Origin: an uncultured archaeon
GTDB taxonomy: Archaea > Asgardarchaeota > Jordiarchaeia > Jordiarchaeales > Jordiarchaeaceae
Assembly: GCA_964510585.1 (NCBI GenBank)
Contig: CAZECW010000196.1
Span: 1-32,000, forward strand
Direction of reading: 5' to 3'
DNA length: 32,000 nucleotides
Shown: piece by piece, positions 1,830-9,376 of the stretch
How positions within the stretch are numbered: the stretch's first letter is position 1
Layout: the number at the start of each line of letters is the position of its first letter
The notes under the pieces: model-generated
What the model was told of the DNA's origin: nothing
Seen by the model: the letters and a program-made list of their open reading frames with translations, nothing else
Database searches by the model: none
Translations under genes and position numbers: made by a program

Positions 1830-3305
1830 ATGCTTGAGTTTGAGGATGTCGAATCAAAAACAATTTTTCGTTTTTACATTGTGGACGCCCATCACCACTT
1901 GGGTGCGGATATCGATGGTCACAGTAATAGAAACCCAGTTGCACCAGGAGGGACCTTCGACTTCTACGTTAAAGTGGGAAAGAAACTCTCAAAGTTATTT
2001 TCCGATAAACCCCATATTTTCAGATACAGCCCACATGGTTTTTTAAATGAATTTATTAGAAATAATAAGAAATGGAAGGACACCCTAAATGGGTCTTGGG
2101 CTGTAGACCAAGTTGTTGTGTTCCCTTTTAACGATGAATTCAAATGGAGGGAGGGGGACGAAGGCAAGGCGATTTACTGGCGTTCCAATGACAACATCGG
2201 AAGATGGGTTACCCGTGCCCCTTACTCTTTAAGATTAATTGGCTTTGGGAGAGTAGTTCCCACCCAGAGAGAACTAGCTATAAGTGAGCTACACAGAGCT
2301 GTAGAACAATTAGGTCTGAGAGGATTGAAACTACATCCCAGATCCGACGGTTGGAGTAGCGATATTGCATCCCCAGAAGTGAAAAATGTTCTCGTTGAAG
2401 CGGCAAAACTTAACATTCCAGTTCTCTTTGACACACGGGGATTTGGTCAAGTGATGGATATACTCGAAGTAACAAAAATGGCTAGAAGCGAACTCCAATC
2501 CCAAAATAAGGCTTTGGTGGAGAACCTAAAGGTAATTATAGCCCACATTGGATTCCACCTGGGACAAAATGAACTATTCGACGTGTTGAGTCACCCCAAC
2601 ATTTATGGTGATACCTCTGGGGTTCACGACACCGGAATCCCTAGATTATTCGAGGAGGCCGTGCAATTATTACAGCCCAATCTTGGAAAGTATAGAAGCT
2701 GGTCAGAAAAAATAATTTTTGGAACAGATTACAACTATTTCGACGTGCCACACGCGGTGCAGTTCATTTCCTTCGTGTTGGGTAATGATTTTCCAGGCAC
2801 TCCTGAAGACGCTCAACGCATACTCGGTTCTAACCTTTTGAAACTGGTTCCCCCCTTTAATAGGGAAACAAAGTCAACCTTCAGGAAAGTACATGTACCC
2901 TTCGAATTGGCGGAATTAACCGAAAAAACTTTAGCGAAACAAATTGCCGATCTGGTGAGTAGTGAAACATATGATCTTTCAAGCATTGATTTCTTCATAG
3001 ATCCGCATCCTAAATTTCAAGTTAGACCCCAAGACTTCAAGATAACCATTTCCCGAAGAGAAAATGAGAGCTGTGAAGACATAAATCTTATAGTACTCTC
3101 CATGCTTGATATATTAACTATAGCAAGATTAGACAACACACTGATGAACTCGTCACCCATAAAAAACAGAATACTTAGATATGATGATGCTGCCTCCCGC
3201 AGAAGCTTTTACAAAAAGCTATGGCCGAGCCACCTAGAAAACAATCCCCAGGAAATGCACGACTTCATAAAATCGATTACTGAAATTGAGAGTTCAAAAC
3301 AATAA
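1830..3305 (+). CDS. Amidohydrolase_2-type TIM-barrel metallohydrolase with a ~140-aa C-terminal extension
   Basis: Motifs DAHHH, RGLKLHP, IIAHIG, IYGDTSG and KIIFGTDY. Confidence 0.88.
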   Translation: MLEFEDVESKTIFRFYIVDAHHHLGADIDGHSNRNPVAPGGTFDFYVKVGKKLSKLFSDKPHIFRYSPHGFLNEFIRNNKKWKDTLNGSWAVDQVVVFPFNDEFKWREGDEGKAIYWRSNDNIGRWVTRAPYSLRLIGFGRVVPTQRELAISELHRAVEQLGLRGLKLHPRSDGWSSDIASPEVKNVLVEAAKLNIPVLFDTRGFGQVMDILEVTKMARSELQSQNKALVENLKVIIAHIGFHLGQNELFDVLSHPNIYGDTSGVHDTGIPRLFEEAVQLLQPNLGKYRSWSEKIIFGTDYNYFDVPHAVQFISFVLGNDFPGTPEDAQRILGSNLLKLVPPFNRETKSTFRKVHVPFELAELTEKTLAKQIADLVSSETYDLSSIDFFIDPHPKFQVRPQDFKITISRRENESCEDINLIVLSMLDILTIARLDNTLMNSSPIKNRILRYDDAASRRSFYKKLWPSHLENNPQEMHDFIKSITEIESSKQ

Positions 3306-3451: not shown

Positions 3452-4948
3452 ATGTCTGAAAAAGATGAAGAATCGGAAAATTTGGATGAACCCGAAGAGG
3501 GTGATTTCAAAAAGTTGGAAAAACTTCCAAAGAAGGAAGATGTTTCAGGAGAACCTGCTGGAAAGCCCATAGAAGAAATCGTGGAAAAAATAGATACACT
3601 AACCGAAGAGGCGGAAAAAGCCGCCGAGAAGGAAGAAGAAATAGTGGAAGAACCAAAAGAAGCGCCAGAAGCCCCCGGAGTGAAACTCAAAATCACAACT
3701 CAAGAAGGGTTAGGCGGATATGTTCTAATAAATGAAGGCGATGCTCAAAAACTTAATGCTATGGAGGGGTCAGTCATAGAATTCGAAGACCCCCTTTCTG
3801 GAACTTGGGGTGTAGCTCTGGCCCGCCCCGACTATGACACCCCCGCTGGTGATATTGTGATGGAGCCTTCTCTCTGCGAAGCCGTGGGGCTAGATGAAGA
3901 TTTTGAGGTAACCGTGAGAAAATTTACTGGTAAACCACAAAAAATTTACAAAATTGTCTTCGGAATCGAGTCGCTTAGTGGCTCCTCAGAGGACGCCATA
4001 CAGGCAGTTGTGGAATCTAAAGAAAAATTCCAAGAGTTTATGGATCACCGGGTAATTTTCAAAGATTGGGTTTTGAAGTGGCCCCAAAAAGAGATAAACA
4101 TTCACATTTCTTCAACAGAGCCGAGCCTGTCTGGGAAGCAAATCGGTGTAATTAATTTCTCAGAGCTCAAAGATTATGAAATAAAACCTTGGAGAGCTGC
4201 GGTGCCATTTAACGCTATACTCCTAATTGACGTATCAAAAAGTATGCTGACGGAAGATATGACGGTTAAAAACATCACCCCTGCGGTGGAAGCTATAAAG
4301 ACGCTGGGAGCCGAAATACCGGAGCTAAAGGAGTTTCTAGAACAGTTCAAAGAGGGAGAAAAAGTAAAACGGGTGAGTGGAGCAGTTTTTGCAGCGCTGC
4401 TCTACTTGGTGGAAAAGGTTGGAAGGGGATATGGCGAAAAAATCGCGGTAATCACGTATAGCGAAACAGCAGATCCACTAACTTTCCTCATGACCGGAGG
4501 GAAAAAATTACCTTACTTCCATCCCGGTAAAAGTAAAATGTCTGGTGTTTCACAACTGGGCCGCCTAATTATAGACCGATTAAACAAAGTTTCCAGTAGC
4601 CACACCAACATGTCCGAAGCCTTAATAAAAGCGCATAAAATGATTAGCATGTGGGAGGAAGAAGCCCCTCAAGAAAAGAAGCCCTCCATGATAGTGCTTC
4701 TGAGCGACGGATTTCCTGACCTTTGGGAGGAGGGACCCCCTGTTGAGATTGCTTACAAGTACTACTCAAACAGAAAAGACACAGTAATTTTTACTGTGGG
4801 GATAGGCAGCGAAGTCCAAGAAAGAATAATGGAAGCCATCGCTAATGCGGGTAAAGGGATATTCTTTAAAGCAGAAGACCTTGGACAGTTGTTGAACTGG
4901 TATCAAAAACTGGCGCGAGACCTGATTGTCAGGTTAGAAGTAGCTTAA
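3452..4948 (+). CDS. Acidic N-tail + Cdc48/VAT N-domain-like region + von Willebrand A domain; no AAA ATPase
   Basis: Residues ~78-160 (VLINEGDAQKLNAMEGSVIEF..GDIVMEPSLCEAVGLDEDFEVTVRK) follow the Cdc48-N double-psi barrel pattern. The VWA domain has MIDAS DVSKS, HTNMSEAL, IVLLSDG and IFTVGIG. Confidence 0.8.
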   Translation: MSEKDEESENLDEPEEGDFKKLEKLPKKEDVSGEPAGKPIEEIVEKIDTLTEEAEKAAEKEEEIVEEPKEAPEAPGVKLKITTQEGLGGYVLINEGDAQKLNAMEGSVIEFEDPLSGTWGVALARPDYDTPAGDIVMEPSLCEAVGLDEDFEVTVRKFTGKPQKIYKIVFGIESLSGSSEDAIQAVVESKEKFQEFMDHRVIFKDWVLKWPQKEINIHISSTEPSLSGKQIGVINFSELKDYEIKPWRAAVPFNAILLIDVSKSMLTEDMTVKNITPAVEAIKTLGAEIPELKEFLEQFKEGEKVKRVSGAVFAALLYLVEKVGRGYGEKIAVITYSETADPLTFLMTGGKKLPYFHPGKSKMSGVSQLGRLIIDRLNKVSSSHTNMSEALIKAHKMISMWEEEAPQEKKPSMIVLLSDGFPDLWEEGPPVEIAYKYYSNRKDTVIFTVGIGSEVQERIMEAIANAGKGIFFKAEDLGQLLNWYQKLARDLIVRLEVA

Positions 4949-5007: not shown

Positions 5008-8000
5008 TTAAGCTTCGGGGACTATCGTTACCTCCACCAGCGAGTTTAACACTAGTTTGTTTGGTATTTCTTTGGGTTCGTCTGGTTTTTCTAGGTCGAA
5101 AATCATTGTTCCAAGGTAGTAGGTTTTGAGTTCTTTGGGCCTTTGGATCTCCCACACTATGGGTTGGTCTAGGGGCCTTATGGGTTTTCCTCTTGGAAGC
5201 ATGATGGTCTTTTTTTCCTGTGCGATTACTTCTTTTGTTTTTTTATCGAAAATTGCGAATACTATTCTGGCGTTAATATCATAGTCGATAAAGCTTTGAA
5301 CTATTGGAGTTATGCTAAACTCCATTTTTTCTCCTTGAAACATGACGTACTCGGCTAATGGAGGTTTGCTACTGTAACCAACTCTGAACCTCGGCTTGTC
5401 TGAGTAGACTTTTATTTTCTTCCTGTTCACCCAACCCACTATGCCATTCTGACTTAGTTGAAGGTTTATGGTGCACTCATTATCTGTAATGTAGGTGGGT
5501 ATTTTGATGCCTACTTGGGCTAATAGTGTCTCATTTGGTTTAAGGTGTATTGGTATGTCTTCTCTGAAGATTTTCTCCCCCTCTATTTCTCCTTCGCAGT
5601 TAAGGTCGAAGCTGATTTTGTCATCGATTCTATTTGCTATTTGTACCATAAGATTATGCATTGCTCCGGGAGCCAACTGTTTTGGCAGATTCTGGAAAAC
5701 CACTTCCACTGCCCTCCCGATGTTTATAACTGGGACTTCCCGGGTGGATTCCAAGATGTTTTTTCCATTTTTAATGAGGGTAGCCCTTAAACAGAAGTGT
5801 TCGGTGCCTTGAGGTACAATAATAGGATTTATCTCAATGAGGGTTTCTGACTGTACACTATCTATGCTTCTTGTGGTAATCATGTGGGGTTGATCGTTAA
5901 TTAGGGCTTCGACATTAAGAATGAGGGGTTTTTCGCTTTCCCTGATTTTTCCAATTTTGAGACCTCCACTAATGGGCATATTAATGAAGGCTTTTTCGGG
6001 TACATTTAACCATTCTATTTCTATGGGAGGCCCTTTCACCAGTTTAAACTTGTGGGGGAGCTCTTCATACTCAAGTAGGCTTCCCCCTTGATAAAGTTCT
6101 ATGCCGACCTTCATTATGTCGCTACGGAGGTTATTTAGCACGTCCTCGGTGGCTTTCCAACTCGTGGTTATTATTGCCTTCTTTGTGGGATTTATTGTTT
6201 CTTCTTTAAGTACCATCTCAAACTCTTTTCTGGTTGTGGATTTTAGCTTGACAACCACGCTAACTGGATCTGTTGACGCTATTCTGGTGGCGTCTACGGA
6301 AAAGCTGATTTCAATTGGTTCACCTATTTGGTAGATTTTGTTTGGCTCCTTCTTTACTTCGAGGGAAACTTCCGGCGTCTGGAAGAAAACCCTAAATGCG
6401 GGAGACCTGCTTTCAGAAATGATCTTCCCATCTTGGTCTATGACCTGTGCTACAATGGAACACTGAGGACTGAGAAATGACGACTTGGCCATACGGGGAT
6501 GTAGAACTAGTGGTGGAATCTCATTCCAACTGCCCTCTTGCTGGGCTTCCAATGCGTCTTTGGCCCACTGGAGTTTAGACATTTCCTCAGACATGGCAAC
6601 AAAGAGCTCCTGCTCTTTGGCACGCATATTTTTTAGCTTTTCTCCCCAGGGTTGACCTTCGCTGCTAATCGAGTAAAACGTTTGCCCCTGATCAATATCC
6701 ACAATTGAAACCTTCAGCGTTAAATTCATGTCCAGAGGTGTAGCATTCTCTATAAAGACTGCATAAGGCACTTCTGTTGCCCCAGTAACTATCACTCCAT
6801 CGACTTGAGCGATAAGGTTGCTCTTGCAGGTAACATGGTAAGCCTGTATTGAGGTTCTCTCAATGGCTATTGTTTCAGTTCCAACTTTTAATTCACTCTT
6901 CAGAATGTATTGTGGCACGCCCATTATTGTTTCGAATTCGATTTCTCCCACTCTTTTCTCCGCAGGCTCCAGTCTATCCACTACAAAGGTTTCCCTCAGT
7001 CTCTCTTCGCCTAAACTGTCATAGACTAGACTCTCAATTGATATATTCTCCAATGGCTTCTTGCCCTTGTTCTCTAAGAACAGCCTACAGGTTACGGGTT
7101 GGCCCTCGAAAACAACTTCGGGTTTTATTTGAATCTCCATGCTAGCGGTTACAGGGAATATTTCTTGTAGGTTAGGTGTGCCGTGAATGGGGTCACTCCA
7201 AACATCGGCGCAGCTCTGATCGGCTATGATTTGTAACTCTCGAGAGAGGCGTTCCATATTTGCCTTGAGTTCCACGAATTTTAAGAGTTGGTAATCAGCG
7301 GTTGTAAGTGGTGTGGGGAAGCTACCTGACAGGTCCCCGTAGATTGTTAGCATAATTGGTTTAAGATATTCTGAACGCAGTATTCCCATTTCCTCTAGTT
7401 CATCCTTAATGTAGAGTATCATGTTTTTTACTGCTTCATGCATCCTTCTCAGGAACTCTGTTCCCTCTTCTGGGTTTTCATAGTAGTAGAATTTGGAGAA
7501 CTCCGGATAATCTTTTAGGAAGCTATCTATCTCCTTCTGTTTAAAGAAGGGCCCCATAAGGCCCCATCTAATTGCTGATCTGCGATTCTTTATCAAAGTC
7601 TCGGAATCCACATTGGGAATCTTTTCCCCTTTTTCAAAAATTTTCTTGGCCTTCAGAGCCAAAGCTTGAATCAGAGCTGCTAAGGCTATTCTTCTAATTA
7701 AACTTATTTGGGAGTCGAAAACTCTTACCTCTACTGTGCCAAAGGAAGTGAAGGGAAACATGTCACACATTCGGGCGGGTACACGGCCCACAACGCTTTC
7801 AAATTTCTTTTCATCATAACTTTCAACATAAGGTATATAGTGCTGGGCATCGTCCGGTCCCAATTGTTTAATGTTCCTCTCTAACCTTATGCTCCTCACG
7901 CACCCCGGAGCATGCAGCTTTCCATCCTTTATCTGAACAATATCTGTTGGTTTTCCCTCCACAAAGGGCGAATTCACGGACAACGCTATTAAATGGGGTA

Positions 8001-8574
8001 AAAACGCCCTCAATAAATTATAGACATGAATACGTAGCTTGGGGTCGGGGACACCAATGTGGTGGTGGTCTCCGAAACTGAGTCCCTGCTGGTAATCCAT
8101 AAGAGGGTTTAAACCCGTTGTGACAACCTTAACACCTGGAGGGAGTGCATCATGAGACAGTTTAACAAGAGTGTGCGCCCACCAAGTCAACTCCTCGAAG
8201 GTGTCGCAGGGCGGAGTTGCTACCTCCAAAATCCAAGTTATGGCTGTCATATGGGGGTCTTTCCCCATAATTTCCACATCTATCTGTTTCCCATCTGGAA
8301 GCTTGTAGCTACATATTAGTGTGTCTCCTCTTTTTTGCACCTGTTCCACTCTTACGTTTGAAACCTTTCTGCTAATGTAGGTTGTTATGGGATCCTGTGG
8401 TTTCTTTAGAATGTTTTTTAGGTTTTTGGCTGCTTCTTCCACGATTTTGCCCATGATGCTAACCATTTTTTCGCCGTCAATCCACGTTCCTTTAAGGTTT
8501 ACAATCTGGATTTCCATCTCTATGCCGTGTGTGAACGGCATCTTCAACAATTGTAGGTTGTTCTGGGTTGGCAT
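5008..8574 (-). CDS. YbdK/GCS2-family carboxylate-amine ligase fused to ~700 aa of repeated beta-sandwich (Ig-like) domains
   Basis: Motifs THGIEMEIQIVN, LEVATPPC, TGLNP, FGDHHHIG, LPHLIALSVNSPF and DMFPFTSFGTVEVRVFDSQ. The tail has alternating beta patterns such as VFEGQPVTCRLFLENKG and LAPGAMHNLMVQIANR. GGAGG lies upstream of the ATG. Confidence 0.88.
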   Translation of the reverse strand: MPTQNNLQLLKMPFTHGIEMEIQIVNLKGTWIDGEKMVSIMGKIVEEAAKNLKNILKKPQDPITTYISRKVSNVRVEQVQKRGDTLICSYKLPDGKQIDVEIMGKDPHMTAITWILEVATPPCDTFEELTWWAHTLVKLSHDALPPGVKVVTTGLNPLMDYQQGLSFGDHHHIGVPDPKLRIHVYNLLRAFLPHLIALSVNSPFVEGKPTDIVQIKDGKLHAPGCVRSIRLERNIKQLGPDDAQHYIPYVESYDEKKFESVVGRVPARMCDMFPFTSFGTVEVRVFDSQISLIRRIALAALIQALALKAKKIFEKGEKIPNVDSETLIKNRRSAIRWGLMGPFFKQKEIDSFLKDYPEFSKFYYYENPEEGTEFLRRMHEAVKNMILYIKDELEEMGILRSEYLKPIMLTIYGDLSGSFPTPLTTADYQLLKFVELKANMERLSRELQIIADQSCADVWSDPIHGTPNLQEIFPVTASMEIQIKPEVVFEGQPVTCRLFLENKGKKPLENISIESLVYDSLGEERLRETFVVDRLEPAEKRVGEIEFETIMGVPQYILKSELKVGTETIAIERTSIQAYHVTCKSNLIAQVDGVIVTGATEVPYAVFIENATPLDMNLTLKVSIVDIDQGQTFYSISSEGQPWGEKLKNMRAKEQELFVAMSEEMSKLQWAKDALEAQQEGSWNEIPPLVLHPRMAKSSFLSPQCSIVAQVIDQDGKIISESRSPAFRVFFQTPEVSLEVKKEPNKIYQIGEPIEISFSVDATRIASTDPVSVVVKLKSTTRKEFEMVLKEETINPTKKAIITTSWKATEDVLNNLRSDIMKVGIELYQGGSLLEYEELPHKFKLVKGPPIEIEWLNVPEKAFINMPISGGLKIGKIRESEKPLILNVEALINDQPHMITTRSIDSVQSETLIEINPIIVPQGTEHFCLRATLIKNGKNILESTREVPVINIGRAVEVVFQNLPKQLAPGAMHNLMVQIANRIDDKISFDLNCEGEIEGEKIFREDIPIHLKPNETLLAQVGIKIPTYITDNECTINLQLSQNGIVGWVNRKKIKVYSDKPRFRVGYSSKPPLAEYVMFQGEKMEFSITPIVQSFIDYDINARIVFAIFDKKTKEVIAQEKKTIMLPRGKPIRPLDQPIVWEIQRPKELKTYYLGTMIFDLEKPDEPKEIPNKLVLNSLVEVTIVPEA

Positions 8575-8590
8575 TTTCTAATACCCTCCA

Positions 8591-9376
8591 CTAGGTGAAT
8601 TCTTTTTCGGCTATTTCACTAAAAGCTTGAATCAAATTGCGAATCTTGTCTGCTTCTACAATGTCGCTGGTAATAGTTAAGTCCAAGATGGAAACATCAA
8701 TATTTGCTGATTCCGCTATAACTTTTAAGCAGTAGGTGAGACTTCCCCCACCAAATACTCTGTCATCATCTATTATTTTATAACTTTCATTTAGCAATCC
8801 CTTAAGTTTACCGATAATATTGTGAGGATCTCTCCGAATATTTTTGTCGACAAAAATTTTACTTCCACCAGAGGGTAACATGGGAAGCGTTCTCAAATTA
8901 ACTATGATTCCCCCCTTACCCTTAGAGCTGCTAACCTTATCTACAAATAGCAGTTGAACAATTCTTGCTATGTTCTCGCTTACTTCCAATCTTCCTTCAG
9001 GGTCTGAAAAGAAAAAATATGAGAAAGGCTTACTCATACTCTCAAATTCCTGGTAAATCTTCTGAATAATGTCAAACAGCACTTCGTCGTCCTCTCCGTA
9101 GGAGGTGGAGCATACTGCAAAAGGAATTCCCACATTTTCAGTTTCGGAAACAGGACTTATTCTACCATAATTCTTGAAACTTTCCAACTCTTCCGTTACT
9201 AAGATCCTATCTACTGCCTTTTCTAAAAACGGAAAAACTTCCGTTTTATAGTTCGTAATCAACAAAACCGCCTCGTCCAGGGCAACCTTATATCTCTTTA
9301 ACAATTCCAAGAATTCCTCAGTTACTCGTTCAAACCTGCTAGTAATTTTCCCTGTTTCATTTTGGGTTTCCAACAT
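8591..9376 (-). CDS. Hypothetical protein; possibly a degenerate N-formylglutamate amidohydrolase / Zn-exopeptidase fold
   Basis: The ORF is clear. The motif order PFAVCSTSYG .. GIIVNLRT .. VFGGGSLTY .. ILDLTI parallels FGase PHxG .. IDxHS .. PYxGGxxT .. QIEI, but without the His/Glu ligands. Confidence 0.6.
   Translation of the reverse strand: MLETQNETGKITSRFERVTEEFLELLKRYKVALDEAVLLITNYKTEVFPFLEKAVDRILVTEELESFKNYGRISPVSETENVGIPFAVCSTSYGEDDEVLFDIIQKIYQEFESMSKPFSYFFFSDPEGRLEVSENIARIVQLLFVDKVSSSKGKGGIIVNLRTLPMLPSGGSKIFVDKNIRRDPHNIIGKLKGLLNESYKIIDDDRVFGGGSLTYCLKVIAESANIDVSILDLTITSDIVEADKIRNLIQAFSEIAEKEFT

Follow-up and report, generated by a model that had tools for sequence, protein, structure and literature searches.

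A GCS2/YbdK-type ligase with an arm of six Ig-like domains in Jordarchaeia and other Asgard archaea

The Locus and Its Open Reading Frame

A 32,000-nucleotide (nt) stretch of DNA from an uncultured archaeon (contig CAZECW010000196.1, assembly GCA_964510585.1, positions 1 to 32,000; hereafter the window) carries on its minus strand a single uninterrupted open reading frame (ORF) of 1188 amino acids (aa), in which a carboxylate-amine ligase domain is followed by a long arm of immunoglobulin (Ig)-like domains. Names in the homolog database assign the window to an Asgard archaeon of the Jordarchaeia ('Freyarchaeota' and Jordarchaeum labels), and the sequencing runs that contain its DNA are hot-spring metagenomes, with no RNA run listed among them. 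The parts of the ORF are given below, with the predicted local distance difference test (pLDDT) as the measure of model confidence.

5008-8574, minus strand: whole ORF, ligase plus Ig-like arm, 1188 aa; stop codon at 5008-5010
7195-8574, minus strand: carboxylate-amine ligase domain, aa 1-460; catalytic motifs kept
7147-7194, minus strand: flexible linker, aa 461-476, pLDDT <50
6832-7146, minus strand: Ig-like domain 1, aa 477-581; resembles CARDB/NEW3/MG domains and carries the motif F-E-G-Q-x-V ... N-x-G
6370-6831, minus strand: Ig-like domain 2, aa 582-735; conservation highest among the tail domains
6469-6663, minus strand: insert in domain 2, aa 638-702; specific to Jordarchaeia, where it is highly conserved; helical in part
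6031-6369, minus strand: Ig-like domain 3, aa 736-848
5725-6030, minus strand: Ig-like domain 4, aa 849-950; weak similarity to domains 1 and 5
5395-5724, minus strand: Ig-like domain 5, aa 951-1060; MG-like, matching the Ig domain of dextranase and the MG domains of alpha-2-macroglobulin/complement with Z 11-13.5
5011-5394, minus strand: Ig-like domain 6, aa 1061-1188; domains 4-6 are common to the tail of a paralog in the same genome

A frame of this length could in principle be an artefact of assembly or gene calling, in which a ligase gene has been joined to a separate beta-rich gene. This explanation is already refuted and effectively excluded. Contigs of independent studies span the entire ORF, including the ligase-tail junction near nt 7150 (X4 and X5, 14 kb, ~98% identity; X9, 5.6 kb, ~94%), and none of these three contains a frame-breaking indel; because independent contigs cover the junction with the frame intact, the ORF is not an assembly artefact. 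The same long frame is found in 74 of the 301 sampled genomes of the phylum over which all distribution scans were run, and in a closed single-contig genome of the same genus (G038). Full-length homologs (n = 17) range from 96 to 31% identity. The fusion is a permanent one.

A Divergent Ligase of the GCS2/YbdK Family

The AlphaFold model of the whole protein, built from the 17 homologs, has a mean pLDDT of 75. Its residues 12-452 superimpose on the Salmonella YbdK structure 1tt4 with Z 32.1 (327 residues, 2.7 Å, 23% identity), followed by plant GCL (Z 24.6), GshF (20.2), Dop (19.1), PafA (17.8), and the glutamine synthetases (~15). The domain accordingly has the glutamine-synthetase-like ligase fold, with YbdK as its nearest and plant GCL as its next nearest relative. 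Sequence searches agree: the Pfam family GCS2 (PF04107) is matched at 39 bits against a cutoff of 21, in an alignment limited to residues 162-210, and the YbdK structures 1r8g/1tt4 are matched in the PDB at E 1e-10.

The catalytic signature of the superfamily has been defined as GhExE together with an arginine on strand 5 (PMC2588565). Both are present in the window ligase, as are HxH and LE. GhExE takes the form G-I-E-M-E (aa 17-21), LE lies at 116-117, HxH is H-H-H (170-172), and ExR is E-V-R (282-284); all four are invariant throughout the family. Because these catalytic residues are invariant, the enzyme looks active, and the protein looks to be a catalytically competent, ATP-dependent carboxylate-amine ligase. 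One substrate loop is altered. Where YbdK has W-D-[VI]-R, 14 of 14 aligned members of the Asgard clade have D-M-[YF]-P, with an invariant arginine three residues upstream (R268-x-x-D-M-F-P in the window protein). This displacement of the loop arginine suggests a remodeled substrate pocket and an acid substrate that differs from that of ordinary YbdK.

The ligase also stands apart in family assignment and phylogeny. It misses the NCBIfam cutoffs for YbdK and GshA-2 (best, TIGR02050, 101.9 bits against 176.4; the others score far below), and in the tree it falls within an Asgard clade with support of 100/100 on a long stem. Scores within the clade are 265-395 bits, while the nearest ordinary YbdKs score 60-75 bits. 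Judged from sequence and phylogeny, the ligase is an Asgard-specific branch of the GCS2/YbdK family and not an ordinary YbdK. The clade is found in 168 of the 301 genomes.

An Arm of Six Ig-like Domains

After a low-confidence linker in the model (residues 465-475), the tail (residues 477-1188) is all-beta, with pLDDT mostly 70-90 and a mean of 82 when the tail is modeled alone. Whole-protein and tail-only models alike resolve six sandwiches, at ~477-581, 582-735, 736-848, 849-950, 951-1060, and 1061-1188. Domains 1 and 5 match solved Ig-like domains with Z 10-13.5 over ~100 residues at 2.1-2.7 Å. The single-domain matches of the tail include the Ig domains of dextranase and GH2 enzymes, Spo0M, HAP2 domain 3, CARDB 3idu, the MG domains of alpha-2-macroglobulin and complement, and arrestin N-lobes. 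The match of domain 1 to 3idu (Z 10.8, 99 residues, root-mean-square deviation (rmsd) 2.7 Å) shows fold class only, because it is tied with many other Ig-like folds. With the array as query, the top Foldseek matches are alpha-2-macroglobulin/complement and ciliary central-apparatus proteins (E 1e-17, low TM-score), and the top matches in the ESM Atlas are archaeal CARDB/NPCBM_assoc arrays of 'S-layer family' proteins (TM 0.36-0.42).

By sequence, the window protein reaches no cutoff of a Pfam Ig family: CARDB (PF07705) gives no hit, and Transglut_C and NPCBM_assoc stop at 12.5 and 12.1 bits. One relative, P0042, does pass Pfam CARDB (24 against 22.7), and a weak MG2 match occurs in a relative (22.6 bits against a cutoff of 32.8). 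No thioester motif (C-G-E-Q or a variant) is present in the tail. Traces of internal duplication are seen between domains 4 and 5 (77% probability) and, at 44%, between domains 1 and 4 and domains 3 and 6.

Conservation is uneven along the arm. In a comparison deep enough for ligase identity to have fallen to 66%, identity is ~60% for domain 2 including the insert, ~47% for domains 1 and 6, and only 21-37% for domains 3-5. The insert (638-702) is modeled with low confidence, yet it is among the best-conserved stretches of the tail. Hydropathy points to a cytoplasmic protein: the N-terminus is hydrophilic, and there is no membrane segment, because the highest 19-residue Kyte-Doolittle mean is only 1.54 and lies within a helix of the ligase. 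No signal peptide or membrane segment was found in the window protein or in seven homologs.

These results confirm the observations of an earlier sequence-only reading of the window, which had described a complete N-terminal ligase followed by a beta-sandwich array in a protein with neither signal peptide nor transmembrane segment. The YbdK/GCS2 fold occupies aa 1-460 with all metal and ATP motifs kept, and the tail proved to be an array of beta-sandwiches once it had been modeled, parsed into six domains, and searched structurally. The segment picked out as a helical insertion corresponds to residues 646-676 of domain 2, which are partly helical in a low-confidence part of the model. Its further statement that ordinary YbdKs carry no such tail agrees with the length of the nearest ones (350-460 aa), and the fusion itself recurs across assemblies.

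Distribution of the Arm

Searched against 1.84 billion representative proteins, a profile of the tail gave 50 hits at E <=1e-3, 23 of which were at E <=1e-10. The strong full-length hits are mostly 850-1170 aa long with the tail starting from ~residue 450-480, and GCS2 was detected in seven of the nine scanned; the weak remainder consists of short matches to the domain 1 motif in giant repeat proteins. The tail is thus almost exclusive to this ligase. Among the sampled genomes, tail-bearing ORFs are nearly always ~1140-1190 aa. Family codes were interpreted through homolog database labels, by which f1 and f2 are Jordarchaeia and f7 is probably Thorarchaeota. The tail is present in 10/10 genomes of f1 and f2, 61/76 of f7, 1/1 of f6, and 1/1 of f26.

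Other families have ligases of different build. Forms of ~560-600 aa occur in f9 (61/68) and f23; the named forms of this type (Loki, Hod, and Sigyn) have an N-terminal extension of 100-150 aa and no tail. The f27 ligases (11/11 genomes) are ~1080-1094 aa long and have a basic low-complexity linker of ~250 aa before a beta-rich C-terminus, which is all but missed by the tail profile. At two f27 loci (L039:5365-8619 (-) and L040:5034-8276 (-)) an amidohydrolase gene lies directly upstream of the ligase, and in L039 a gene of the ubiquitin-conjugating-enzyme family UQ_con is found ~3 kb from it. The tree places the tail-less forms inside the tail-bearing ones; a single tail-type clade is not rejected by the approximately unbiased test (p 0.119).

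Neighboring Genes and Their Linkage to the Ligase

The ligase is the last gene of a minus-strand trio whose members are spaced by 7 and 16 nt. Converging on it from the plus-strand side are a gene for a 187-aa coiled-coil protein, a metal-dependent hydrolase of the Amidohydro_2 family, and a protein that combines a domain resembling the Cdc48 N-domain with a VWA domain (Cdc48N-VWA), whose metal ion-dependent adhesion site (MIDAS) is intact.

9384-10667, minus strand: first gene of the operon, 427 aa, C-terminal coiled coil; no Pfam family, conserved only in Jordarchaeia
8591-9376, minus strand: gene of the small partner, 261 aa, separated from the ligase start by 16 nt; no match to a Pfam family
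3452-4948, plus strand: convergent Cdc48N-like plus VWA protein, 498 aa; intact MIDAS D-V-S-K-S at aa 260
1830-3305, plus strand: metal hydrolase of the Amidohydro_2 family, 491 aa; its linkage to the ligase recurs in several Asgard lineages

Hydrolase, VWA, and ligase genes are adjacent in relatives whose ligases are 52% and 32% identical to that of the window, and linkage of the VWA and hydrolase genes to the ligase was seen at 18 loci, including a tail-less Lokiarchaeum locus. In the latter the hydrolase gene directly follows the ligase and a 755-aa Cdc48N-VWA homolog is encoded 4 kb upstream; a 645-aa upstream gene, considered there as a possible detached arm, gave a faint TIG match (E 0.047). 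At the thorarchaeal loci the VWA gene lies within ~7 kb of the ligase, as does the hydrolase gene where the fetched stretch reaches it. Thorarchaeota also have a syntenic block of their own (L019:4314-6368 (+), L019:11434-12360 (+)), in which the ligase is preceded by a 145-aa orphan and a pair of genes for oligopeptide-type ABC ATPases and followed by a DUF92 membrane protein; between the ligase and the VWA gene, at a distance of ~7 kb, lie five to seven genes that look unrelated. The 145-aa protein shows no similarity to the 427-aa protein of Jordarchaeia and has no named neighbor in the Atlas.

The window VWA protein begins with a very acidic stretch of 76 aa that its paralog does not have. 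A C-terminal acidic residue was considered as a conserved MIDAS ligand and rejected, as the C-termini vary between clades. Beside the operon are a gene for an SCP2 sterol-carrier-like protein (10948-11328 (-)) and two PaaK-type AMP-binding genes (11401-12729 (-) and 14054-15406 (+)), the second of which is preceded by a gene for a 340-aa protein with a faint zinc-ribbon match only.

The Small Upstream Partner

In Jordarchaeia, Thorarchaeota, f6, f26, and a metagenome-assembled genome labeled 'Asgardarchaeia', the gene immediately before the ligase encodes a recognizable relative of the 261-aa protein (217-263 aa). A profile scan of the phylum found the small partner in f1 (5/5), f2 (5/5), f6 (1/1), f7 (56/76), and f26 (1/1), and nowhere else. 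Partner and tail therefore have an identical distribution at the family level, and this co-distribution is the strongest indirect evidence that the two are functionally tied. A complex prediction in which the tail was folded with the small partner scored 0.21 against a mark of 0.32, a value that speaks neither for nor against such a tie.

Pfam searches with 15 members and a PDB profile search returned nothing beyond coiled-coil noise, and the small partner has no conserved histidine. In other hot-spring populations its gene shows in-frame length differences (3 nt in total, window 9077-9084), and the ligase ORF shows substitutions only. In three lineages other than Jordarchaeia and Thorarchaeota, a gene for a protein of ~760-805 aa stands before that of the small partner (L026:5462-7879 (+), L025:12560-14944 (-), and L004:4997-7285 (+)). 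These proteins are 22-35% identical to one another, and one has a clear C-terminal EAP30/Vps36 (ESCRT-II-type) domain (E 3e-19).

A Second Ligase-VWA Pair

The same genome encodes a ligase paralog of 1371 aa (G000 contig C47, L003:3789-7904 (-)) with a ligase domain 40% identical to that of the window. Two beta-rich blocks in it are joined by a strongly basic linker rich in Lys and Pro, and its last ~340 aa are homologous to tail domains 4-6. The paralogous gene converges on its own Cdc48N-VWA gene (L003:2442-3770 (+)), whose product is 31% identical to the window VWA protein, and this second convergent pair is retained in three of the three other Jordarchaeia genomes checked. Ligase and VWA protein have been duplicated as a pair, and a specific partnership between them is therefore favored. 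Genes for Cdc48, Hsp20, and ArsR beside the paralog were considered as functional context and set aside, since they are not conserved in the three other genomes.

Possible Function of the Ligase and Its Arm

The tentative proposal made here is that the arm-bearing ligase docks a partner or a large target and acts on a large substrate. In the ligase domain, a carboxylate would be converted to an acyl phosphate and then joined to an amine. The Ig-like arm would contribute no chemistry and would serve as a fairly rigid platform for docking and positioning. Domains 1-2 and the insert, which form its conserved base beside the catalytic domain, and domain 6, its conserved tip, might hold the small partner, a large target (protein, peptide, or polymer), or both, with the poorly conserved domains 3-5 as spacers. 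The Cdc48N-VWA protein would act as an adaptor, and the Amidohydro_2 enzyme may reverse the bond. The sequence-only reading had cast the tail as a macromolecule-binding platform; its array and its fusion to the ligase are borne out, and the docking role stays plausible, backed only indirectly by the co-distribution of arm and partner and by the better conservation of domains 1, 2, and 6.

Several observations weigh against this proposal. The tail-less forms of Loki, Hod, and Sigyn retain the VWA and hydrolase neighbors; because they do, the arm is an accessory and not needed for the core reaction. No tag-like gene was found at the locus, and the C-terminus of the small partner is not conserved. 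Known GCS2/YbdK enzymes use small molecules, and a small amine or acid substrate would be compatible with the features seen here. The co-distribution of arm and partner covers only about five independent lineages, and related genomes share features by kinship. Finally, the resemblance of the small partner to FGase, poly-gamma-glutamate hydrolase, and MATCAP comes from the Atlas only (features 0.90-0.91; TM 0.52-0.57) and is not confirmed by Pfam or the PDB; it is an unconfirmed lead to what may be a non-catalytic fold.

A wider proposal, which must be considered unlikely as it stands, is that ligase, Amidohydro_2 hydrolase, and Cdc48N-VWA protein form an Asgard-wide and so far unrecognized system of reversible amide modification, with the three as writer, eraser, and adaptor, that would act on proteins or another polymer without recourse to E1/E2 chemistry of the ubiquitin type. 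Its targets would then be chosen, in Jordarchaeia and Thorarchaeota, by the Ig-like arm and the small partner.

A possible, if rather doubtful, alternative is that the enzyme ligates small molecules (a gamma-glutamyl-type or other amide), with the arm serving homo-oligomerization, a larger assembly, or localization and the amidohydrolase acting in the same pathway. All characterized close relatives of the fold (YbdK, GCL, and GshF) work on small molecules, the tail-less relatives keep the same neighbors, the f27 arrangement with an amidohydrolase directly upstream resembles a metabolic operon, and domains 3-5 evolve fast, as spacers would. However, a 700-aa arm of six domains kept over class-level divergence would be a costly ornament for a metabolic enzyme. 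The co-duplication of the ligase with a protein-interaction partner of the Cdc48N-VWA type also speaks against this alternative, as does the remodeling of the substrate loop relative to YbdK. Quite improbable is a system resembling Pup tagging, in which lysines would receive a protein tag from the ligase, Cdc48N-VWA would bring targets to the proteasome or Cdc48, and the tag would be detached by the hydrolase. In its favor, PafA and Dop are members of this superfamily with a probable origin in GCS2 (PMC2588565), the ligase model matches them with Z 17.8-19.1, the partner has a Cdc48 N-domain, and the paralog adjoins Cdc48 and Hsp20 genes in this genome. Yet the Cdc48, Hsp20, and ArsR neighbors are not retained in three other Jordarchaeia genomes, and no proteasome genes and, apart from that Cdc48, no unfoldase genes occur in any neighborhood examined. 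Nor was a small gene found with a conserved C-terminal Gln/Glu or Gly-Gly; the protein encoded upstream of the ligase is 220-261 aa long and has a variable C-terminus.

The arm could also be taken for a surface-type CARDB array on an exported or S-layer-associated protein, given that the nearest predicted arrays are those of the archaeal 'S-layer family' proteins mentioned above. This reading is effectively excluded: neither the window protein nor its seven homologs have a signal peptide or membrane segment, an ATP-dependent ligase cannot function outside the cell, and the partner proteins are cytoplasmic in type. The host adds to the interest of the protein: no closer relatives of eukaryotes than the Asgard archaea are known, and the way they handle proteins is followed with attention for that reason. 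A ligase of the family from which the bacterial Pup ligase probably arose, combined with a cytoplasmic Ig-like arm, a Cdc48N-VWA protein, and a hydrolase, offers a candidate for a novel kind of covalent modification that can be put to the test. Should the substrate turn out to be a small molecule, the existence of a distinct ligase branch in over half of the Asgard genomes sampled would still stand, as would the intracellular reuse of arrays of the surface CARDB type.

Comparison with Known Systems

No paper on Asgard carboxylate-amine ligases or on this architecture was found in the literature; a report on Klebsiella CfmP concerns an ATP-grasp enzyme and is irrelevant here. The closest known system is YbdK/GCS2 (PF04107; E. 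coli 1r8g, Salmonella 1tt4), with which the window ligase has in common the fold and the GhExE, E, HxH, and ExR motifs. YbdK itself is a stand-alone enzyme of ~370 aa, whereas the window ligase has ~100 extra residues in the catalytic domain, a displaced W-D-x-R arginine, the 700-aa Ig-like arm, and a conserved gene set. With PafA/Dop it shares the superfamily, the pairing of a ligase with an amide hydrolase, and possibly a macromolecular target. However, the hydrolase here is an Amidohydro_2 enzyme and not a paralog of the ligase, there is no Pup-like gene or proteasome linkage in the neighborhoods examined, and the window ligase is nearer to YbdK than to PafA.

For the arm, the CARDB/NEW3/MG arrays (the COG1361 S-layer family; alpha-2-macroglobulin and C3/C4/C5) are likewise strings of beta-sandwiches of ~100 residues. 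Whereas CARDB/MG arrays are extracellular, that of the window is cytoplasmic, linked to an enzyme, and devoid of the thioester motif, and it matches them as an array with TM 0.1-0.4. Transglutaminases (factor XIII and TG3) offer the same layout, in which the core of an amide-bond enzyme is followed by C-terminal Ig-like barrels. The matches to them are weak (Pfam Transglut_C; Z 10.5-11 at rmsd 23-33 Å), and with an unrelated catalytic fold and chemistry, and two barrels instead of six, the resemblance is one of layout only. Ultimately, the enzyme family is a known one, but neither the architecture of this member nor its gene set has been described before.

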